A stretch of 64,000 nucleotides of DNA from NCBI GenBank assembly GCA_027618565.1, contig JAQCEQ010000008.1, positions 688 through 64,687 on the forward strand, in the 5' to 3' direction. The notes under the pieces are model-generated. The model did no database searches. It was not told where the DNA came from and saw only the letters and a list, made by a program, of their open reading frames with translations. This DNA comes from Planctomycetota bacterium (GTDB taxonomy: Bacteria; Planctomycetota; Phycisphaerae; Phycisphaerales; SM1A02). Position numbers and translations under genes: made by a program. Shown one piece after another: positions 3,708 through 36,479 of the stretch (positions are counted from its first letter, which is position 1; every line of letters begins with the position of its first letter).

Positions 3708-3776
3708 AACGGTCGAACCCCCGCCGGCGACGCCTTGAAACGGTCGAACCCGCGCCGGCGACGCCTTGAAACGGTC
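3690..3776. repeat. 31-bp tandem repeat x2.8 (CCGCCGGCGACGCCTTGAAACGGTCGAACCC)
   Basis: Units 3690-3720 and 3721-3751 are identical. A partial third unit at 3752-3776 runs into the hairpin loop. Each unit carries CTTGAAACGGT (3703, 3734, 3765) and repeats the last codons and stop of the lipoprotein gene. Confidence 0.95.
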
Positions 3777-3816
3777 AGGATTTGCTGCTTAAGTCACGAT
3801 TCCCACCGTTTCAAGG
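3764..3816. repeat. Hairpin element copy 1 (12-bp stem CCTTGAAACGGT/ACCGTTTCAAGG, 29-nt AT-richer loop)
   Basis: The arms at 3764-3775 and 3805-3816 are perfect reverse complements. The loop is CAGGATTTGCTGCTTAAGTCACGATTCCC. Located between the convergent lipoprotein and DUF559 genes. Confidence 0.9.
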
Positions 3817-3896
3817 GTGAGACGGCGACGCACCGCTCGCGCGCAACCGTTTCAAGGGTGAGACGGCGACGCACCGCTCGCGCGCAACCGTTTCAG
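3805..3896. repeat. 41-bp tandem repeat x2.2 (ACCGTTTCAAGGGTGAGACGGCGACGCACCGCTCGCGCGCA)
   Basis: Units 3805-3845 and 3846-3886 are identical. A degenerate start of a third unit (ACCGTTTCAG) lies at 3887-3896. The repeat duplicates the 3' end and stop codon of the DUF559 gene. Confidence 0.95.
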
Positions 3897-4880
3897 TGTC
3901 GCTTGCACCATGCCAGCCACCGCGCGGGGGTCGTCGGTCAGCGATTTCCAGGTGGCGTGCACCACCGTCCAGCCACCCAGCTGCAGGTCGTTGCGGCGAT
4001 CTCGATCCCGCTCGAACGCGGCATCGCTCGTATGAAAAGCCTTCCCGTCCACTTCCAAGGCCAGCCGGCAATCGGGCCAGGCGAAATCGATCCGTGCCAG
4101 GCGGTGCGAGAACCCCGCCTTCTTGGCCACCGGAACCCGCACGCTGTGGTTGGCGTGCCAGCCCGATCGACCGCCGGGTCGATTCCGCGCGCTGAGGAGT
4201 GCCCGCCGCATGAGCCGTTCCGCCGCTGAGTGGGTGCCATCGCGCAGGTGCCTGAGTGCCTGGCGTTCTGCCGCGTTGGAGCGCCGTCCTTGCCGACCGG
4301 CGGATCGGCCCGCGAGCCGCCGCTGGGCCTCGTCCACGCGAATCCAGCGACGCTGCAAGCAGTGATCCAGGAAGTCCGCGCGGAGGTCCGTGGGAACCAC
4401 CTGCAACGTGTCCAGGAGAGCAGTCAATCGATCCGCAAAGACCAAGTCGCGGCGGTGAATGGCACGCCCGTCGAATTGGCGTCGCAGGACCCTCGCGCCG
4501 GCCACGCTGATGTGTCGATTGACGGACGCGTAGGCCATTGGCGTGATCGCGCAGAATCGAGTGGCCCAGTCGCCATCGCACCCCAGAATCTGCGCCGCCG
4601 CCGCGCCGGTGATGACCGCCCCAGCGCCCAGTCGAAGCGTGAGCGCCTGGGCGTCGGCGCGGGACCGGCGCGTGACGGCGGATGGAATGAGCAGGCATTC
4701 CAGGTGCTTTCGCAGAAACCCTTGGCGTTCCAGCGTCGCCAGTCGGCGGCGCGAGCAGCCAAGCGCCAGTGCTTGTGGGCGTGTGACCACGCCCTGCTGG
4801 ACGCTTGCGAGCGAAGTCAAGTCATTCGTCGCGGCAGGTGTTCGTGATCGCGGAGTGATCGAGCCACGGTAAGGCAGCAA
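3852..4880 (-). CDS. DUF559 (Vsr-like endonuclease fold) protein with AbiEi-like N-terminal wHTH
   Basis: The C-terminus ...IDFAWPDCRLALEVDGKAFHTSDAAFERDRDRRNDLQLGGWTVVHATW is the DUF559 signature. The N-terminus QQGVVTRPQALALGCSRRRLATLERQG is AbiEi_4-like. There is no ATG near the 5' end; TTG at 4880 or TTG at 4820 are the possible starts. Confidence 0.8.
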   Translation of the reverse strand: MLPYRGSITPRSRTPAATNDLTSLASVQQGVVTRPQALALGCSRRRLATLERQGFLRKHLECLLIPSAVTRRSRADAQALTLRLGAGAVITGAAAAQILGCDGDWATRFCAITPMAYASVNRHISVAGARVLRRQFDGRAIHRRDLVFADRLTALLDTLQVVPTDLRADFLDHCLQRRWIRVDEAQRRLAGRSAGRQGRRSNAAERQALRHLRDGTHSAAERLMRRALLSARNRPGGRSGWHANHSVRVPVAKKAGFSHRLARIDFAWPDCRLALEVDGKAFHTSDAAFERDRDRRNDLQLGGWTVVHATWKSLTDDPRAVAGMVQATLKRLRASGASPSHP

Positions 4881-20120: not shown

Positions 20121-20242
20121 GCGATCCAGAGGACGGCCGGGCCCGTAGGTCGGGCTTCGCGTGAACCTGGTCAGGGCCTGACGGCAGCAGCCATAAGCGT
20201 TGTTGTCCGAGCCTGCGGTCACCTGGCCGTCCTCAGGGTCGC
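20121..20242 (+). ncRNA. ffs: Signal recognition particle RNA (small bacterial 4.5S type)
   Basis: A ~122-nt near-continuous hairpin (g20121-c20242 ... g20176-c20185 pairing traced by hand). The apex CCUGGUCAGGGCC-UGAC-GGCAGCAGCCAUAAG matches the conserved SRP domain IV pattern (GUCAGG...helix...AGCAGC). It sits directly upstream of dnaX, a common synteny. Confidence 0.75.
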
Positions 20243-20277: not shown

Positions 20278-21777
20278 ATGCCCCCGCGCACCGCCCAGCC
20301 CAGTTCAAATCCCAGTGCGGGCACAAGCCCCGCCCCAGGTCGTCGGGGGCAGGGTGACGGCACCTACCAGGTGCTGGCACGCCGCTACCGGTCGCGGGAA
20401 TTTGGAGAGGTGGTCGGGCAGGAGATCATCGCCAAGACCCTCCAGAACGCCATCATCCTTGGTCGGACGGCGCATGCGTACCTGTTCACCGGCACGCGCG
20501 GGGTGGGAAAGACCAGCATGGCGCGCATCTTTGCGCGTGCCCTCAATGCCCCTGTCGCCGCGGGCGATGGCGCGGAGGCCCTCCTCCCCCGGGCCGCATC
20601 CGTCGATGCGATCCTCGTCGGCCAGGACATCGACGTCATCGAGATCGATGGCGCCAGCAATCGAGGCGTGGACGACGCCAGGAGCCTGATCTCCGGGGCC
20701 GGCATCACACCCACGCGGTCGCCCTACAAGATCTACATCATCGACGAGGTCCACATGCTGACCACGCCGGCCTTCAACGCGCTCCTCAAGACGATGGAGG
20801 AACCGCCGGAGCACGTGAAGTTCATCCTGTGCACCACCGAGGCGCACAAGGTCCCCGCAACGATCCAGTCGCGCTGCCAGCGGTTTGACTTCAAGTCGAT
20901 TCCCATGGCGCGAATCCAGGCGCACCTGTCGAGCGTGCTGGAGTCCGAGGGCATCTCGTGGGAGCCGGAGGCGCTCTCCGAGGTCTCGCGCCTGGCCAAC
21001 GGGTCGATGCGCGATGGGCTGAGCCTGCTGGAGCGACTCATTGCGGCTGCCCGGGGCACGATCACGACGGGCATCGCGCGGGAAGTCCTCGGCTTGCCCG
21101 ACGCCCACCGGCTCGACGACATGCTGCGCGCGGTCGCCACGGCCGACTCATCAGGTGCCCTCCGCGCCGCGAGCGCGATGCTGGACACCGGCGTATCGGT
21201 TGAGCACCTGCTGGAACTGCTCGCGGATCGATTTCGTCTGGCGATGGTGGCGGCGACCTGCGGGCTGGATGGGCTTCCGGAGGATCTCTCGAGGGAACAC
21301 TGCCTTGGCGCCTTCGAGGCGGCATCGGGCATGGCTGTCGAAGACCTGGTCCACGCCGTTGCCCTCTGCGACTCGACCAGCCGGACGACTCGGTCGAGCT
21401 CCATCCCTCGTGCGGTCCTGGACGCGCTCTTGGTGCGGCTGGCGCTTTCGGAGCGATTTGCGAGCTCGTCGGGAGAACCTGCTTCAGCGACCACCGTCGC
21501 CCAAAAAAAAAAGGTTGAGCCAACCACTGCACCAGCCACTGCCCTCGCCGCAGTGACGGCGACGGTGACCCTCCCGCGAGCCCCCGTCTCCGGGGCCGTG
21601 CTACCTCCACCACCCCCGGCGATCAACCAGCAGGAGGCTGTCGCCGAGGCCGCACGAGATCCGGTGATCCAGGACCTTATGAGCGTGCTCGATGCGACCG
21701 TCCTGCGGGTGGAGCCGCTGGAGGGTGTCGTCCATGCATCCGTCGACACGGATGCCTCCGATGAGGGCGAGGAGTGA
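20278..21777 (+). CDS. dnaX: DNA polymerase III subunit tau/gamma DnaX
   Basis: YQVLARRYRSREFGEVVGQEIIAKTLQNAIILGRTAHAYLFTGTRGVGKTSMARIFA (AAA+ clamp-loader N-terminus). ATG at 20278 was chosen because the track start at 20200 would overlap the SRP RNA. Confidence 0.92.
   Translation: MPPRTAQPSSNPSAGTSPAPGRRGQGDGTYQVLARRYRSREFGEVVGQEIIAKTLQNAIILGRTAHAYLFTGTRGVGKTSMARIFARALNAPVAAGDGAEALLPRAASVDAILVGQDIDVIEIDGASNRGVDDARSLISGAGITPTRSPYKIYIIDEVHMLTTPAFNALLKTMEEPPEHVKFILCTTEAHKVPATIQSRCQRFDFKSIPMARIQAHLSSVLESEGISWEPEALSEVSRLANGSMRDGLSLLERLIAAARGTITTGIAREVLGLPDAHRLDDMLRAVATADSSGALRAASAMLDTGVSVEHLLELLADRFRLAMVAATCGLDGLPEDLSREHCLGAFEAASGMAVEDLVHAVALCDSTSRTTRSSSIPRAVLDALLVRLALSERFASSSGEPASATTVAQKKKVEPTTAPATALAAVTATVTLPRAPVSGAVLPPPPPAINQQEAVAEAARDPVIQDLMSVLDATVLRVEPLEGVVHASVDTDASDEGEE
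21503..21518 (+). other. A10 homopolymer / A-AAA-AAG slippery site with immediate -1 frame stop inside dnaX
   Basis: Zero-frame codons are CAA AAA AAA AAG GTT GAG. The -1 frame reads AAA AAA GGT TGA (stop 21516-21518). Confidence 0.6.
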
Positions 21778-22439
21778 ACGACCGGAGGGACTCTGCCGCA
21801 CCGGAGAGCGTGGCGAGGCTCGTCGCCAAGCTGCAGGGCCTCCCAGGCATCGGTCGGCGAAGTGCCGAGCGGATCGCCTTTTGGGTCCTCAAGGCCAGCG
21901 AGGATGAGTGCGCGGCACTGGCGGCTTCGATCAACGAGGTCAAGCGTTCCGTCCGCCACTGTGCCACGTGCTGGAACCTGGCGGACCACGATCCCTGCGC
22001 GATCTGTGCCGACAGGACTCGCGACGCATCGACCATCCTGGTGGTGGAGCAGCCGCGCGACTTGCTCAGCTTGGAGAACGCTGGGATGTACCGCGGCGTC
22101 TACCACGTGCTGATGGGACGGCTCGATCCACTGGATGGCGTCGGTCCCGACAGCCTCACCCTCCGGGACCTGGAGCGGCGCGTGCGTGAGCCGGCCACAC
22201 ATCCCTCCAGGACGGCGGTGCGCGAGGTCATCCTCGGCCTGAATCCTGACATGGAGGGAGACACCACCGCGCTCTGGATCGAGCGACAGTTGGCGGCGAC
22301 GGGCGTCCGAGTGACTCGCCTGGCACGGGGCCTCCCATCCGGCTCCCAGATCGAGTTCGCCAACGCAGCCGTGCTCGCCGACGCGCTGGCCGGCCGGAGG
22401 GCCTCGGCAGAACCAGCCTCAGGGAGCGCGCGCCCGTGA
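21774..22439 (+). CDS. recR: Recombination protein RecR
   Basis: LVAKLQGLPGIGRRSAERIAFWVL (HhH), the CATCWNLADHDPCAICAD zinc finger and a Toprim region. GTGA overlap with dnaX. Confidence 0.92.
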   Translation: MNDRRDSAAPESVARLVAKLQGLPGIGRRSAERIAFWVLKASEDECAALAASINEVKRSVRHCATCWNLADHDPCAICADRTRDASTILVVEQPRDLLSLENAGMYRGVYHVLMGRLDPLDGVGPDSLTLRDLERRVREPATHPSRTAVREVILGLNPDMEGDTTALWIERQLAATGVRVTRLARGLPSGSQIEFANAAVLADALAGRRASAEPASGSARP

Positions 22440-23842
22440 AGCACAGGCTGGAGCAGCGGCCGCTCCTGGGGCAGCGGCTGCAACAGAAGCTGGCGCCACG
22501 CATGATCCAGGCGATGGAGATCCTCCATCTTGGGCTGGACGACCTGGAGGAGCGCGTCCAGCAAGAGCTGGAGAAGAATGTCGTCCTGGAGCGAGTCGAG
22601 TCGGCGGCGCCCGAACCCGGGTCATCCAGTCACTCGCGCGCGAACGAACGCCACCGGCTCTCCGATGACGCGATGGAAGCCCGCGCGGCGATGTTCGACC
22701 AGACTCCGTCGCGCGAGATGTCTCCCACCGACATCCTTCACGAGCAATGGCAATTGGTCGAATGCACCCCTGCGGAGGCGCGACTGGGCTCGTTCCTGAT
22801 CGAGAACCTGGACGGGAACGGGTTCCTTCCCGACGACGATGAGACCCTGGCGAAGTCGGCGTCGGACGCGCTGAAGGAACCGGTGGCCGCCGCGGGCATC
22901 GCGGCGTTGCGCGCGCTGCTCACGACGGAACTTGAACCGGTGGGAGTCGCGGCTCGCGACAGGAGTGAGTCACTCACCCTGCAGTTGCAACGGGTGTCAC
23001 GCCGGGGCGTTCCGGCTGACGTGCGCGCCGATGCCCTCCGCGTGCTCAAGGGATCGCTGGAGGACCTGGAGCGGAATCGGCTGCCAATGCTTGCCAAGCG
23101 CCACAAGCTGCCGCTGGCGCGGCTCCAGGCGATTCGTGACTTGGTCACGTCGCTGGACCCGGCGCCGCTGGCTCGCCTCAATCGGGTGTCGGCACAGGCC
23201 ATCCGGCCCGAGGCCTACATCGTCTACGACGCCGAACGCGACGTGTATGTGCTCGCGATGTCCCGTGGGGCCAAGCCCGCGCTCCGCATCGCACCCGCCT
23301 ACGAAAGGATGGCAGCGGCGCCTGAAACCTCGCCAGAAGCCAAGGCGATGCTCAAGGAGGGGATCAAGAAGGCCAACTGGATCATTGACGCGATCGAGCA
23401 GCGGGCCTCGACACTCAAGCGAGTGCTCGAGGAAGTCGTTTTGCTGCAGCGGGAGTGGCTGGACAAGGGAAGGGGATACCTCCGGCCGATGCCGATGACC
23501 GAGGTGGCGGGGAGGATCGGCGTGGCGATTTCCACCGTGTCGCGGGCGGTCGCGGGCAAGTGGGTGTCCACGCCGCACGGCATGATGGAGATCCGGCGCT
23601 TCTTTTCTGGCGGCACGGTTGGTCCCGAAGGACGCCCCGTGGCCTGGGACTCGGTGAAGCGGAAGATTGGCGACCTCGTGAGGGCGGAGGACTCGCGCCA
23701 TCCGTTGAGCGACCAGGCCATCGTGAGGCGGCTGGGCGAGGAGGGCATTCAACTGGCCAGGCGGACCATCGTGAAGTATCGCGAGTCACTGGGAATCCCC
23801 TCGTCGCGACTCCGTCGCCGACACTCGGGTGAGTCTCCGTGA
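22436..23842 (+). CDS. rpoN: RNA polymerase sigma-54 factor RpoN
   Basis: N-terminal LEQRPLLGQRLQQKLAPRMIQAMEILHL, an HTH (VAGRIGVAISTVSRAVAGKW) and the RpoN box ARRTIVKYRESLGIPSS. GTGA overlap with recR. Confidence 0.92.
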   Translation: MKHRLEQRPLLGQRLQQKLAPRMIQAMEILHLGLDDLEERVQQELEKNVVLERVESAAPEPGSSSHSRANERHRLSDDAMEARAAMFDQTPSREMSPTDILHEQWQLVECTPAEARLGSFLIENLDGNGFLPDDDETLAKSASDALKEPVAAAGIAALRALLTTELEPVGVAARDRSESLTLQLQRVSRRGVPADVRADALRVLKGSLEDLERNRLPMLAKRHKLPLARLQAIRDLVTSLDPAPLARLNRVSAQAIRPEAYIVYDAERDVYVLAMSRGAKPALRIAPAYERMAAAPETSPEAKAMLKEGIKKANWIIDAIEQRASTLKRVLEEVVLLQREWLDKGRGYLRPMPMTEVAGRIGVAISTVSRAVAGKWVSTPHGMMEIRRFFSGGTVGPEGRPVAWDSVKRKIGDLVRAEDSRHPLSDQAIVRRLGEEGIQLARRTIVKYRESLGIPSSRLRRRHSGESP

Positions 23843-28031: not shown

Positions 28032-29883
28032 GGCGCTGCGCCGCGGTCCAGGCCGCCATGCGCTCTTCAAGCACATCCAAGGGGAGCGCTCCGGCTCCCA
28101 GCAGGTGGTCGTGAAACGCGCGCAGGTCAAAGTCCGCGCCGAGGGCTGCTTGGGCGTCCGTGCGCATGCGGCGAATCGCGATCTCCCCGATCTTGTATCC
28201 CGTCGCCTGCCCGGGCCAGGCAATGTATCGATCGACCTCGCGCTCGATGTTGAGGTCTGAAAGGCCCGTGTTGTCGCGCATGAACGCGATCGCCCGCTCG
28301 CGGCTCCACCCGAACGTGTGGATGCCGGTGTCCACCACCAGGCGGCACGCGCGCCACTGCTCAAAGCCCAATCGGCCGAAGTCCGCGTACGGATCGCGCT
28401 CGTAGAAACCCATCTCGATTCCAAGCCGCTCGGCATACAGCGCCCAGCCCTCCACGAAGACGGTGTAGTGCAGGTCGCGGCGAAAGCGGTGGTGGCCAGT
28501 GAGTTCCTGCGAGATGGCAATCTGCAAGTGGTGTCCTGGCACCGCCTCGTGCAGCGAGAGCGGAATCATGTCGTAGGTCGGGCGCTCGCTGAGGGCGTAG
28601 GTGTTGGCGCAGAACCATCCAGGCAACCCGGTCTCCAGGCTTCCAGGCTGGTAGTAGGCGGTCGTCTGCGATGGCGCCATGAAGGCGGGGATCTCGCGAA
28701 CGCCGTAGGGGAGTTGGGGGAGCCGACCAAAGAAGCGGGGCAATTCCGCGTCGATGCGCTTGCAGATGTCGCGGTAGCCAGCGAGGAGCGACTCCGCCGA
28801 GGCCGGCACAAACTGCGGATCAGATCGCAGGAAGGAGACAAAGGAATCGAATCGATCCTGCTCAGACTGGCCCGACCCTGCCGGATGCTCCGCCGCCCAT
28901 GGGGTCTTCTCGATGACCGCCATCATCTCGGTCCGGATCCGAGCCACCTCCTCCACGCCCAGGTCATGGATCTGCTGGGCGGTGAGACGGGTGGTGGTGA
29001 ATGACCACAACTGGTGGTGGTAGTACTCGCGACCCATCGGCTGGTCAACTGCGGCTGTCGACGGATGGCACGCCGGGATGTACTGGCTGCGCAGAAACTC
29101 GGCCGTCGCCCGGAGCGCCGAAAGGGACCCAGTGCGAGCAGCATCGACCCGTGCGAGGAGAACCCCACGCTCGGCGTCGTCCATCCCAGCCCACTCACGC
29201 AGGACCGGCGCCCGCCACCCGCGCAGACCACCTCGCTCCACGGCGGCGAATTGGTCCAGCACGCCCCCCATCGCGACCGTCGAGGGCACCATGCCCTCGC
29301 GCAGGCCCTGCTCCAGGGTGGCGTGGGTCTGCGCCACGATCGTGGGCTGCTGCTCCATTCGGGTCACGAACCACCGGACATCATCCGCGTGACGAAAGGG
29401 AGTGTCGTCCGGGATCGTCGGGAGTGACTGTTGCGGGCCTCCCCGGTGGTGGACCGGCATCAGCCACCGGCGGAATCGGTGCCCTTGGGTGGACCGTTCC
29501 AGCTCGCCCAGCAGGAGAGACAGGTCCAGTCGGTCAGCCGCCTCCGCCTGGGGCAGCGCCGCGCTTGCCTGTGCCAGAAATTTTATCTCCTCACGGTGGC
29601 GTCGTTCGATGGCCCCGACCGAGTGGTCCGTGACACGAGTTGGGTCGACATTCCTTCCGCGTGCGAAGGCGCGTTCCGGGAATTCACGGTCGACCCACTG
29701 CACATACTCGTCAAGGAGGGACCGGGGAGCGGCCGCCGGAGGGGGGGGCGTGGCCTGCGCTCCCGCCGAGGCTGTCGTCAGGAGGGCCAGCGCCGCCCCG
29801 CGAAGCCACCCTGCGAGCCGGCGAGGGCGTTGTGCCGCATGGGAGTGGCTGAATTGCGTCGATTCCGCTTGGAAGAACCTCAT
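28012..29883 (-). CDS. DUF885 family protein (secreted, metallopeptidase-like)
   Basis: 623 aa with a signal peptide. HEAVPGHHLQ and the flanking sequence are typical of DUF885. Confidence 0.85.
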   Translation of the reverse strand: MRFFQAESTQFSHSHAAQRPRRLAGWLRGAALALLTTASAGAQATPPPPAAAPRSLLDEYVQWVDREFPERAFARGRNVDPTRVTDHSVGAIERRHREEIKFLAQASAALPQAEAADRLDLSLLLGELERSTQGHRFRRWLMPVHHRGGPQQSLPTIPDDTPFRHADDVRWFVTRMEQQPTIVAQTHATLEQGLREGMVPSTVAMGGVLDQFAAVERGGLRGWRAPVLREWAGMDDAERGVLLARVDAARTGSLSALRATAEFLRSQYIPACHPSTAAVDQPMGREYYHHQLWSFTTTRLTAQQIHDLGVEEVARIRTEMMAVIEKTPWAAEHPAGSGQSEQDRFDSFVSFLRSDPQFVPASAESLLAGYRDICKRIDAELPRFFGRLPQLPYGVREIPAFMAPSQTTAYYQPGSLETGLPGWFCANTYALSERPTYDMIPLSLHEAVPGHHLQIAISQELTGHHRFRRDLHYTVFVEGWALYAERLGIEMGFYERDPYADFGRLGFEQWRACRLVVDTGIHTFGWSRERAIAFMRDNTGLSDLNIEREVDRYIAWPGQATGYKIGEIAIRRMRTDAQAALGADFDLRAFHDHLLGAGALPLDVLEERMAAWTAAQRLKRPTG

Positions 29884-33946: not shown

Positions 33947-35481
33947 GTGCACGCACTAGCCACTCGACCACGCCACTGCTCGTCGCCTCCTGCCGCGCTT
34001 TCGCGGATCACCTCTCACCGGTCTTGGCGTATCGACGACTCGTCGCGCCCGACGCACGAACGGCTCCCAGCCTCCTGCTCGAGAGTGTGGAGCAGGGGGG
34101 AGTGATCGGCCGGTACAGCGTCGTTGCTGCGCAGCCCGCCATGACGGTCACCGCACGCGGGCACCAGGTGACGATCCTGGATCACCGCACGGGGTCGATG
34201 TCCACATCCGAAGAGAGGGACCCGCTGGAAGTGCCACGCCGACTGACGCGCGTCTACCGACCGTGCTCGTCGTCCGCGCTGCCGGCGACTTTTGTCGGAG
34301 GCTGGGGAGGCACGGTGTCCTTCGATGCGGTCCGATGGCTGGAGCCGAAGGCCCTCTCATTCCAAGGCGCCCCCCCGTGCGACCGAGGAACCGCCGACTT
34401 GGCGCTGAGCCAGTACCGCACGGTCGCTGTCTTCGATCACCTGAACAAGTCCGTGGAGGCAATTGCCGCAGTGCCTGCGGATGAGGCGGGGAGCGAGGAC
34501 GCAGCGCGCCTTGAGGCCCACGCCGCAGCGGAGCGGTTGATGGACCGGCTCTGCCACGGCCGCGAGAGCCTGGAGCCGGGTCGATTTGCGCTGGACCTGG
34601 GCGCCCCGCCCGCCGCTCTGGACTGCCCGACCTTCGCCGACGCAGACTTCCGTGCGGGCGTTGAGCGCTGCCAGGAATACATCCGCGCGGGCGATGCGTT
34701 CCAAATCGTGCTCAGCCGCCGGTTCGAGCGGTGGTCAGGCGCGGACCCCTTCGATGTCTATCGCGCCCTCAGGGTAGTCAACCCCAGCCCGTACCAGGCG
34801 TACATCCAGACCGGCGATGCGATCTTGGTCGCCGGCAGCCCGGAGATCCTCTGCCGAACGCGAGGGCGTGCGCTGGTGAATCGACCACTCGCGGGGACTC
34901 GTCCTCGAGGTCGCGACGCGGACTCAGATCGCGCCCACGAAGCAGACCTCTTGGCCGACACCAAAGAGCGCGCCGAGCATGCGATGTTGGTGGACTTGGG
35001 CCGAAATGACTTGGCGCGCGTCGCGGAGCCCCACTCCGTCGTGGTCGAGTCCTGCATGGATGTGGAGCGCTACAGCCATGTGATGCACCTCTCCAGCACC
35101 GTCACCGCAACGCTGCGCGGGGACCTTGATTCGTGGGACGCGCTGCGCGCCACGCTTCCTGTCGGAACGGTGAGCGGGGCGCCAAAGGTGAGAGCGATCC
35201 AGATCATCGATGAACTGGAACCGGTGCGTCGCGGCGCGTACGCGGGCGCCTTGGGCGTGGTGGGATGGAACGGCGACATGGACATGGCAATCACGCTCCG
35301 CACCATGGTGGTCCCCGCCTCGATGTGGGGAAACGATCGCTGGCGCTACGACCTGCAGGCGGGCGCTGGCGTGGTGCTGGACTCCCGGCCGCAGGCGGAA
35401 GCGGACGAGACTCGGCAGAAGGCCGCGGCGCTGGGTCGAGCCATTGAGCTGGCTGAAGCGGCATTCACGCGGGTGCGCTAG
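33943..35481 (+). CDS. trpE: Anthranilate synthase component I
   Basis: PSLLLESVEQGG (LLES feedback motif) and the chorismate-binding C-terminus (...GTVSGAPKVRAIQIIDELE...RGAYAGALG...). ATGA overlap with ruvC. Confidence 0.88.
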   Translation: MSARTSHSTTPLLVASCRAFADHLSPVLAYRRLVAPDARTAPSLLLESVEQGGVIGRYSVVAAQPAMTVTARGHQVTILDHRTGSMSTSEERDPLEVPRRLTRVYRPCSSSALPATFVGGWGGTVSFDAVRWLEPKALSFQGAPPCDRGTADLALSQYRTVAVFDHLNKSVEAIAAVPADEAGSEDAARLEAHAAAERLMDRLCHGRESLEPGRFALDLGAPPAALDCPTFADADFRAGVERCQEYIRAGDAFQIVLSRRFERWSGADPFDVYRALRVVNPSPYQAYIQTGDAILVAGSPEILCRTRGRALVNRPLAGTRPRGRDADSDRAHEADLLADTKERAEHAMLVDLGRNDLARVAEPHSVVVESCMDVERYSHVMHLSSTVTATLRGDLDSWDALRATLPVGTVSGAPKVRAIQIIDELEPVRRGAYAGALGVVGWNGDMDMAITLRTMVVPASMWGNDRWRYDLQAGAGVVLDSRPQAEADETRQKAAALGRAIELAEAAFTRVR

Positions 35482-36479
35482 TACACATCCGGCTTCGATC
35501 CCATGTCCTGACTGTGAGCGGGCGGTGGCGATCCGGCAATCGACCTCGGGATGTGCTCAATCGGGGTCGCAGATCCTTCGGGAACGAGTTCGATCGGTGC
35601 ATCACTCGCAGGGTCCGCGGGTGGCTGGCCACTGCCCGGGTCAGCCAACCCTTGGTTCATCGCCCGTCGTGCACCGGCCCGCTCGATCGAGGCCCATGGG
35701 TCCACCTCGCGCTCAAGCGCGCCTTGGTCCACCAAGGTGGCGGCGCGCCCCAGGGCATCGTGCGAGGCCAGGGCGGCCGCCACGGTGAACACCAGACCAG
35801 CGAGAATCGAAATGGTCGGAATCCCTGCCGCTCCGCTGAGTGGGAGCAGCCCAGCTCCCACCAGGACCAGCATCACCCCAAGCACCCACGCGACCAGTGC
35901 TCCCAGCGCCGTCCATCGAACCAGTGCCGATTGGGCGATGGCACCAACTCGGGCGGCGATCGTCGTGGAGACAATCAAACTCAACCAGCTCAAGAGGGTG
36001 AGCGCTGAGGCGATGGAGACCATCCATGAAACGATCATGTCTTCGGCCAGTAGCGCCAAGAGTGCGGTGCCAAACCCGCACCCGATTTCGACCACTCCAA
36101 GCCACCACAGGGTCGAGATCCTCGCCATCGGCGGCGGCCCGTCCCAGTCCAGCCCCTTGGCTATCCGCAGTTGATGTGCGGCCCACACCACGAACCCGCC
36201 GGCCAGCCCAAAGCCGATGAGGGCGGCCGCGGTCCCGATGGCACCTAGGAACAAAAAAAAGAACGGCAGGATCGTCACGCCGCCGGTGGTCCCCAGGCAT
36301 CGAAGGGTGCTCCCCGCGACCAACGCGCTCTCCCTGGTGTTCGCGTCGGAGACATAGCTTGACCAACTCACCCCGACCGATCGTCCGCACTCCGGGCATG
36401 GGGCAGCCACATCCAGCCCACGGATGGGGTAGGCGCAGCCTTGGCAGGTGAGGGTGGAGTCGTGGGGAATCTGCCGCAT
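35478..36479 (-). CDS. Zinc-ribbon membrane protein (hypothetical), paralogous in layout to 23839..24981
   Basis: LTCQGCAYPIRGLDVAAPCPECG followed by ~7 hydrophobic helices. Its stop overlaps the trpE stop (CTAG). Confidence 0.6.
   Translation of the reverse strand: MRQIPHDSTLTCQGCAYPIRGLDVAAPCPECGRSVGVSWSSYVSDANTRESALVAGSTLRCLGTTGGVTILPFFFLFLGAIGTAAALIGFGLAGGFVVWAAHQLRIAKGLDWDGPPPMARISTLWWLGVVEIGCGFGTALLALLAEDMIVSWMVSIASALTLLSWLSLIVSTTIAARVGAIAQSALVRWTALGALVAWVLGVMLVLVGAGLLPLSGAAGIPTISILAGLVFTVAAALASHDALGRAATLVDQGALEREVDPWASIERAGARRAMNQGLADPGSGQPPADPASDAPIELVPEGSATPIEHIPRSIAGSPPPAHSQDMGSKPDVY

Follow-up and report, generated by a model that had tools for sequence, protein, structure and literature searches.

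A conserved A10 run in a Planctomycetota dnaX gene as a probable tau/gamma recoding site

The closest described systems in which dnaX yields two clamp-loader subunits, tau and gamma, by recoding are those of Thermus thermophilus and Escherichia coli. In T. thermophilus dnaX, transcriptional slippage takes place on a run of nine A's (A9), with stops near in both nonzero frames (Larsen et al., 2000, as described in PMC1088944 and PMC5009743). The shiftiness of A_AAA_AAG, the heptamer at which E. coli dnaX shifts, is likewise documented (PMC5009743), and the gamma proteins of both organisms end at a comparable position past domain III (PMC5009743, PMC1088944). Antonov et al. (2013; PMC3711429) described dnaX genes split into two open reading frames (ORFs) that need recoding for tau, comprising 17 genes in 12 genera (nine of them with A10) as well as Chlorobi; Planctomycetes contributed just 2 genomes to that study. 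We found no paper in the searchable literature that links Planctomycetes dnaX to recoding. Here, we analyze the dnaX gene in a stretch of 64,000 nucleotides (nt) from a Planctomycetota bacterium (contig JAQCEQ010000008.1; the whole stretch is termed the window herein). The gene contains an A10 run that we take, with a probability of roughly 0.8, to be a programmed recoding site yielding tau and gamma, chiefly by Thermus-type slippage.

The A10 run, its heptamer, and the nearby stops

The identity of the gene as dnaX (clamp-loader gamma/tau) was confirmed by a match to TIGR02397 (NCBIfam, dnaX_nterm) with a score of 363 bits (cutoff, 250) and by a PDB sequence search, in which the window protein matched the E. 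coli tau/gamma structures (E = 5e-68). A Pfam search with the 525-amino-acid (aa) ORF that opens at position 20200 placed DNA_pol3_delta2 at residues 74 to 234, the ATPase lid at 239 to 286, and DNA_pol3_gamma3 at 292 to 417. About 20 residues past the end of domain III (residue 417 in the ORF), the dnaX frame reads CAA AAA AAA AAG GTT GAG (21502 to 21519), and the run codes for residues 410 to 412 of the 499-aa protein, or 435 to 438 of the 525-aa ORF. Past the run, the -1 frame reads GGT TGA, that is, one codon and then a stop, and the +1 frame reads ...KKKRLSQPLHQPLPSPQ, with its stop 14 codons past the run. An earlier annotation made from the letters alone (the sequence-only reading) had named the A10 run, the in-frame A_AAA_AAG, the -1 stop, and the +1 stop after 14 codons, and all of them were confirmed in the sequence.

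An A10 run with stops this near is far from chance. It is the longest homopolymer of the window, which has a GC content of 65.6%; the next longest are an A8 at 36253 and a G8 at 29741, and a first-order Markov model predicts ~0.0008 runs of at least 10 A's in 64 kb. In the 40 high-confidence ORFs of the window, Lys is encoded by AAG 305 times and by AAA 34 times (10% AAA), and CAA makes up 21% of the Gln codons, which gives a prior of ~0.002 (0.21 × 0.10 × 0.10) for QKKK being spelt as A10. Across the same ORFs, either alternative frame runs for a median of 38 codons before it meets a stop, so the earlier statement that such frames stay open for hundreds of codons was too strong. Nevertheless, just 0.6% of coding positions have both a -1 stop no more than 1 codon away and a +1 stop no more than 14 codons away (P = 0.006). 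As a side observation, the second-longest A run of the window (A8, 36253 to 36260) appears as T8 when the ORF at 35478 to 36479 is read on its coding (minus) strand. The codons there are CTG CCG TTC TTT TTT TTG TTC (LPFFFLF, in a hydrophobic segment), and the run is probably incidental to the FFF stretch.

Conservation and frame architecture in related dnaX genes

We compared the DNA of 167 dnaX loci drawn from the matches listed in collection scans, and all locus counts below refer to these listed matches. The 55 loci with at least 55% identity to domains I and II of the window protein form the related set, and the others were treated as distant. Members of the related set that come from genome collections are mostly Planctomycetota by record title (Phycisphaerae, Gemmata, Pirellulales, and Planctomycetaceae), and those from metagenomes carry no taxon label. 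At the position equivalent to that of the window site, a run of A7 to A10 was found in 45 of the 55 related loci and in none of the 49 distant loci with a GC content of ≥0.55 (Fisher p ~ 1e-19), a strongly positive outcome for the proposal of the sequence-only reading that the A run and the -1 stop be sought in related dnaX genes. In the two closest of the listed loci, A10 followed by G (L081, 67% identity) and A9 (L082, 64% identity) each have their -1 stop 2 codons on. When nine sites were aligned at the nucleotide level, the A's formed the sole invariant columns, with a mean column identity of 53% in the linker. Relatives with GC contents ranging from 45 to 75% retain pure A runs. Protein searches returned many Phycisphaerae-like DnaX gene calls that end at or just past the conserved KKK, and others that read through. 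Overall, the A run at this dnaX position is conserved across most of the sampled Planctomycetota.

The 43 non-identical sites are of two architectures. In 32 of them (type I), tau lies in frame 0, as in the window; the run is A9 or A10 in 29 of the 32, and the median distances to the next stop are 3 codons in the -1 frame and 5 codons in the +1 frame, where the local backgrounds are 33.5 and 20.5 codons (n = 32). The remaining 11 (type II; loci L084-L087, L001, L004, L005, L007, L008, L089-L091, and L119) are reversed, with the genomic frame stopping 0 to 5 codons past the run. In 10 of the 11 type II loci, the -1 frame contains the tau C-terminal motif itself or a near match recognized by eye, and in none of the 11 does the motif lie in the +1 frame; at L119, the -1 frame is merely the longest open frame. 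Recoding is therefore obligatory for tau at the type II loci. Their genes are annotated as truncated proteins of ~390 to 430 aa, followed by an uncalled gap of ~330 nt before recR. With the conserved run and the out-of-frame stops of the relatives, type II loci included, the suggestion of a tau/gamma recoding site made from the window alone gains support. The window itself falls outside the two-ORF class, defined by a frame-0 ORF that ends at the run and a tau C terminus in another frame, since its tau is in frame 0.

One type II form, in which A10 is followed by TAG (protein P0057), is the same across 28 contigs; no variants in length are recorded for it, and it is therefore a stable genomic state rather than an assembly error. 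None of the predicted A9, A11, and A12 products of the window gene and of P0057 was present among ~15 billion proteins in an exact look-up, which thus gave no sign of length variants at the DNA level and is blind to RNA. In the same lineage (L084-L087, at ~3770 to 3900), the tandem PRLEPPRVEP repeats of the tau linker vary in number, and L086 is 20 codons shorter than the otherwise near-identical assemblies.

Some loci deserve separate mention. A search for other slippery heptamers in the run-less loci L020, L036, L065, L069, and L100 found only a G7 (L100) and an A6 (L069). In L100, a planctomycete-like dnaX without an A run, in-frame G_GGG_GGC and G_GGG_GGG heptamers (~3712 to 3727) stand at the equivalent position (~aa 432 to 435), with the -1 stop 1 to 4 codons on. 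Among the distant loci, L131, L098, L161, L165, and L162 (48 to 54% identity; unlabelled metagenome contigs with GC contents of 0.35 to 0.53) also carry A9 or A10 at ~aa 425 to 440. Both other frames stop within 1 to 7 codons in the first four of these and after 24 and 10 codons in L162, and the site type may extend beyond Planctomycetota.

Slippage, frameshifting, and other explanations

It is very probable that the A10 run functions as a tau/gamma recoding site and, given that it does, transcriptional slippage would probably be the main route; the occurrence of slippage, its efficiency, and the split between transcription and translation are inferred from the sequence. In the proposed mechanism, the RNA:DNA hybrid would lie wholly inside the rA:dT tract, allowing RNA polymerase to realign, mostly by adding A's. 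Tau would be made from mRNAs with the templated A10 (499 aa) or with A13 (500 aa). Reading in the -1 frame past the run would give a gamma-like protein consisting of domains I to III plus ~20 residues: mRNAs with A11 would end at the TGA at 21516 to 21518 and encode 413 aa (...QKKKG), and those with A8 would encode 412 aa (...KKG). Messenger RNAs with A12 or A9 would end at the TGA at 21554 to 21556, with products of 426 or 425 aa that carry a 14-residue +1-frame tail. The same gamma product may also arise in part from -1 ribosomal frameshifting at A_AAA_AAG without stimulation.

The sequence-only reading had offered both Thermus-type slippage and E. coli-type frameshifting. The former fits the window better and is the likeliest mechanism there because no clear stimulators of the E. 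coli type were found. The 16 nt 5' of the heptamer (gcgaccaccgtcgccc) contain no Shine-Dalgarno (SD)-like element, the nearest being a GGGAG at 21471 to 21475, 31 nt upstream. Folding downstream of the window site gave z = -1.4 to -1.5 (14 to 21 of 200 shuffles fold as well), and the closest relatives gave z = +1.0 (L081) and z = -1.2 (L082); nothing significant was obtained by folding the upstream 40 nt, the downstream 60 to 82 nt, or the whole site. An Rfam search of positions 21200 to 21800 returned no match at E ≤ 1, and the whole window contained only a signal recognition particle (SRP) RNA. A terminator-like upstream hairpin (GCGAC-CACC-GTCGC) was considered as a stimulator of slippage and dropped since it is not conserved in L081 and L082, and a downstream hairpin (GGTTG-AGC-CAACC) is likewise not conserved in these two loci.

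Three further features point to slippage: runs of A9 to A10 are kept despite a 90% bias for AAG, where A7 suffices for frameshifting; stops are enriched in both alternative frames; and A9/A10 sites differ in the base that follows the run (G, C, or T). The RNA:DNA hybrid spans 8 to 9 bp, and we read A9 to A10 as the length that places this hybrid wholly within the homopolymer. In an E. coli reporter carrying a run from another gene, the shifted product amounted to 63% for A11, 40% for A9, and 10% for A7 (PMC3711429), and efficient slippage is therefore expected at A10. The main slippage product is more likely to result from an added A (A11), giving the same ...KKKG as -1 frameshifting, than from a lost A, because all 11 type II loci need the -1 direction and because slippage in bacteria reportedly inserts bases (PMC5009743). 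On this point, slippage as proposed in the sequence-only reading is retained and its assumption of a lost A gives way to an added one. The site has every sequence feature of the Thermus type: it lies in dnaX, the A run has at least ~9 residues, the position is after domain III, stops are present in both frames, and the run is conserved against codon bias.

Several observations weigh against recoding chiefly by slippage. A perfect in-frame A_AAA_AAG lies within the run, and sequence alone cannot apportion the two mechanisms; in vitro, the heptamer by itself causes ~14 to 16% frameshifting with E. coli ribosomes (bioRxiv 10.1101/2025.10.02.679949). Judged by the criterion in PMC3711429, the -1-only direction of the type II loci would point to ribosomal frameshifting, and it is equally predicted by insertion-biased slippage. 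The +1-frame stop of the window is only moderately close (p = 0.17), at 12 to 17 codons in its own subclade. The locus counts are phylogenetically non-independent and cover the listed matches, and the site is not universal, as some Planctomycetota dnaX genes (L020, L036, L065, and L100) have no A run. Slippage and two isoforms are, for this organism, predictions from DNA.

The most serious alternative, which we nevertheless consider unlikely, is that gamma is made chiefly through programmed -1 ribosomal frameshifting of the E. coli type at A_AAA_AAG, with the additional A's being incidental. It would account for the in-frame heptamer shared with E. coli dnaX, for the -1 stop one codon on, and for the exact -1 shift needed in 11 of 11 type II relatives, and the shiftiness of the heptamer in vitro favors it as well. 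It would leave unexplained the lack, in the window, of an SD-like element 10 to 14 nt upstream, of a significant or conserved hairpin, and of an Rfam match, and it does not require the enriched +1-frame stops; nor would it call for a conserved A9 to A10 against the AAG bias when 7 A's would suffice, and A9/A10 sites show no conservation of the base that follows. In a GC-rich genome, a tRNA-Lys(CUU) may well be present; it makes AAG less shifty and would likewise count against this alternative. The tRNA scan of the 64-kb window found no tRNA genes.

Frameshifting probably does operate in part of the phylum. Runs of A7 to A8 (n = 11) are always in the heptamer phase xxA AAA AAA (9 of 9 among the A7 relatives) and are followed 4 to 7 nt 3' by strong GC hairpins. 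The mean downstream z is -1.91 for these sites (n = 11) and -0.52 for the A9 to A10 runs (n = 32; Mann-Whitney p = 0.006, with phylogenetically non-independent loci). The hairpins with z values of -1.8 to -4.7 just 3' of A7/A8 runs are at L002, L003, L004, L005, L007, L001, and L089; Rfam detected only SRP RNA in seven A7 relatives. We tentatively suggest that frameshift-type and slippage-type dnaX sites may coexist in one phylum. It is conceivable, though somewhat short of an even chance, that a single Planctomycetota dnaX site has repeatedly switched both its mechanism (A7 in heptamer phase plus a 3' hairpin for ribosomal -1 frameshifting versus an unstructured A9/A10 for RNA polymerase slippage) and the subunit templated in frame (tau in 32 sites, gamma in 11, the latter switch always by the equivalent of a one-A deletion). 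If so, recoding efficiency would be near 50% throughout the phylum, and the tau of the window clade would be minimal, with a tau-specific part made up of only the linker and a 20-residue peptide.

That no recoding takes place appears improbable. The run would then encode a conserved basic KKK patch in a gene that makes tau only, and any gamma would arise by proteolysis, as it does in Caulobacter (PMC5009743). The conservation of KKK at the protein level is consistent with this, as is the predicted status of the two products. However, AAG, used for 90% of the Lys codons, would satisfy a protein constraint, yet pure A runs are kept, and neither the close stops in both other frames nor the 11 type II loci with the tau C terminus in the -1 frame are explained. 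Still less credible is the idea that the homopolymer is unstable in the DNA (phase variation) or was misassembled: long A runs are prone to indels in replication and sequencing, and run length and frame vary between relatives. However, the A10-containing DnaX protein is recorded for this organism in 2 contigs, with two NCBI protein accessions (the identical 499-aa database protein, P0001, has the record title 'MAG: Planctomycetota bacterium'). The 28 identical P0057 contigs and the failure of any predicted length variant to appear among the ~15 billion proteins also speak against it. Moreover, dnaX is essential for the replisome, which makes on/off switching implausible. Finally, the minus-strand T10 preceded by GGTTGGCTCAACC, flagged by a terminator scan at 21525..21513 (-), was rejected as an antisense intrinsic terminator, the least plausible of these explanations, and judged a by-product of the A run, given a minimal 5-pair stem with 3 G-C pairs, 0.7 such matches expected in shuffles, an antisense location inside an essential gene, and a hairpin that, unlike the run, is not conserved in L081 and L082.

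Gene surroundings, the tau extension, and relation to described systems

TABLE 1 Features of the dnaX region in the window
Feature	Position	Strand	Basis
A10 run, slippage-prone, codons cAA AAA AAA AAg (QKKK)	21503..21512	+	Read from sequence
In-frame heptamer A_AAA_AAG, identical to the site of shifting in E. coli dnaX	21507..21513	+	Read from sequence
-1-frame TGA ending predicted gamma (413 aa, ...VAQKKKG), via -1 frameshifting or A11/A8 transcripts	21516..21518	+	
+1-frame TGA terminating the other predicted short product, encoded by A9/A12 transcripts (425-426 aa, ...KK(K)RLSQPLHQPLPSPQ)	21554..21556	+	
dnaX coding sequence, frame-0 product tau of 499 aa, identical to P0001	20278..21777	+	Profile and structure-sequence matches
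Clamp-loader domains I-III, common to tau and predicted gamma	20419..21450	+	Pfam
Tau-only extension, 87 aa, Pro/Ala-rich linker and terminal motif	21514..21774	+	
Conserved terminal motif DPVIQDLMSVLDATVLRVEP, 20 residues	21658..21717	+	
Bacterial small SRP RNA, RF00169, 55 bits	20134..20232	+	Rfam scan

The positions of the features are compiled in Table 1. The SRP RNA gene lies directly 5' of dnaX and overlaps the TTG at 20200 with which the mechanically called ORF starts; because it occupies this region, we take the ATG at 20278 as the true dnaX start. An SRP RNA also precedes dnaX in L002-L005 and L007, and the order ffs-dnaX-recR is the classical arrangement. Downstream of dnaX are recR (21774 to 22439) and rpoN (22436 to 23842). 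The end of dnaX and the start of recR share the letters GTGA (21774 to 21777), and 4 nt (22436 to 22439) are common to the recR stop and the rpoN start; these overlaps suggest that dnaX-recR-rpoN is a translationally coupled operon. This gene order is shared by L081, L082, and L084.

The tau extension of the window protein is unusually short, with only the linker and the 20-residue motif remaining. The motif has the form P-x-[VI]-x6-[FL]-D-A-x-V and recurs at the tau C termini of relatives; its position and conservation suggest a tau-specific interaction element. Pfam and PDB sequence searches with the 87-aa extension matched no family and no solved structure. The DnaX_C domain was absent from the window protein in the Pfam search and was weakly detected (E = 0.0034, below the cutoff) in a longer relative (L009). 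For the tau-specific character that the sequence-only reading had ascribed to the last ~87 residues, the support is their position and the terminal motif, which is conserved at tau C termini across the phylum.

The predicted site would extend tau/gamma recoding to a phylum for which no report was found in the searchable literature. It also bears on annotation: many planctomycete dnaX genes are called as truncated proteins of ~400 to 420 aa, with the tau tail left uncalled, and recognizing the site would correct these calls, while the dnaX gene of the window would itself hide a second product. Slippage-type and frameshift-type variants, and variants with tau or gamma in frame, all seem to be present among close relatives. 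If they coexist, they would offer a comparative system for the interchange of transcriptional and translational recoding and for the setting of the tau:gamma ratio.

Among the described systems, Thermus dnaX is matched in having tau in one ORF, a homopolymeric A run past the gamma core (A9 in Thermus, A10 in the window), stops close in both nonzero frames, and no dedicated stimulators detected in the window. The window gene differs in belonging to another phylum, in a run that is one base longer, in a very short tau extension (87 aa) without a recognizable DnaX_C, and in that its slippage is a prediction. With E. coli dnaX, it shares the in-frame A_AAA_AAG, a -1 frame that gives one residue and then UGA, and the position relative to domain III; unlike in E. 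coli, no SD-like stimulator was found ~10 nt upstream, the 3' folding is neither significant nor conserved, Rfam gave no match, and the heptamer sits inside a longer A10 run. The two-ORF dnaX genes likewise have a poly(A) run at the tau/gamma junction. Unlike them, the window has tau in frame 0, whereas its type II relatives display their exact architecture, with a -1 shift at the DNA level. The principle is already established by Thermus, E. coli, and the two-ORF dnaX genes, and the window and its relatives confirm and extend this known biology rather than change it.

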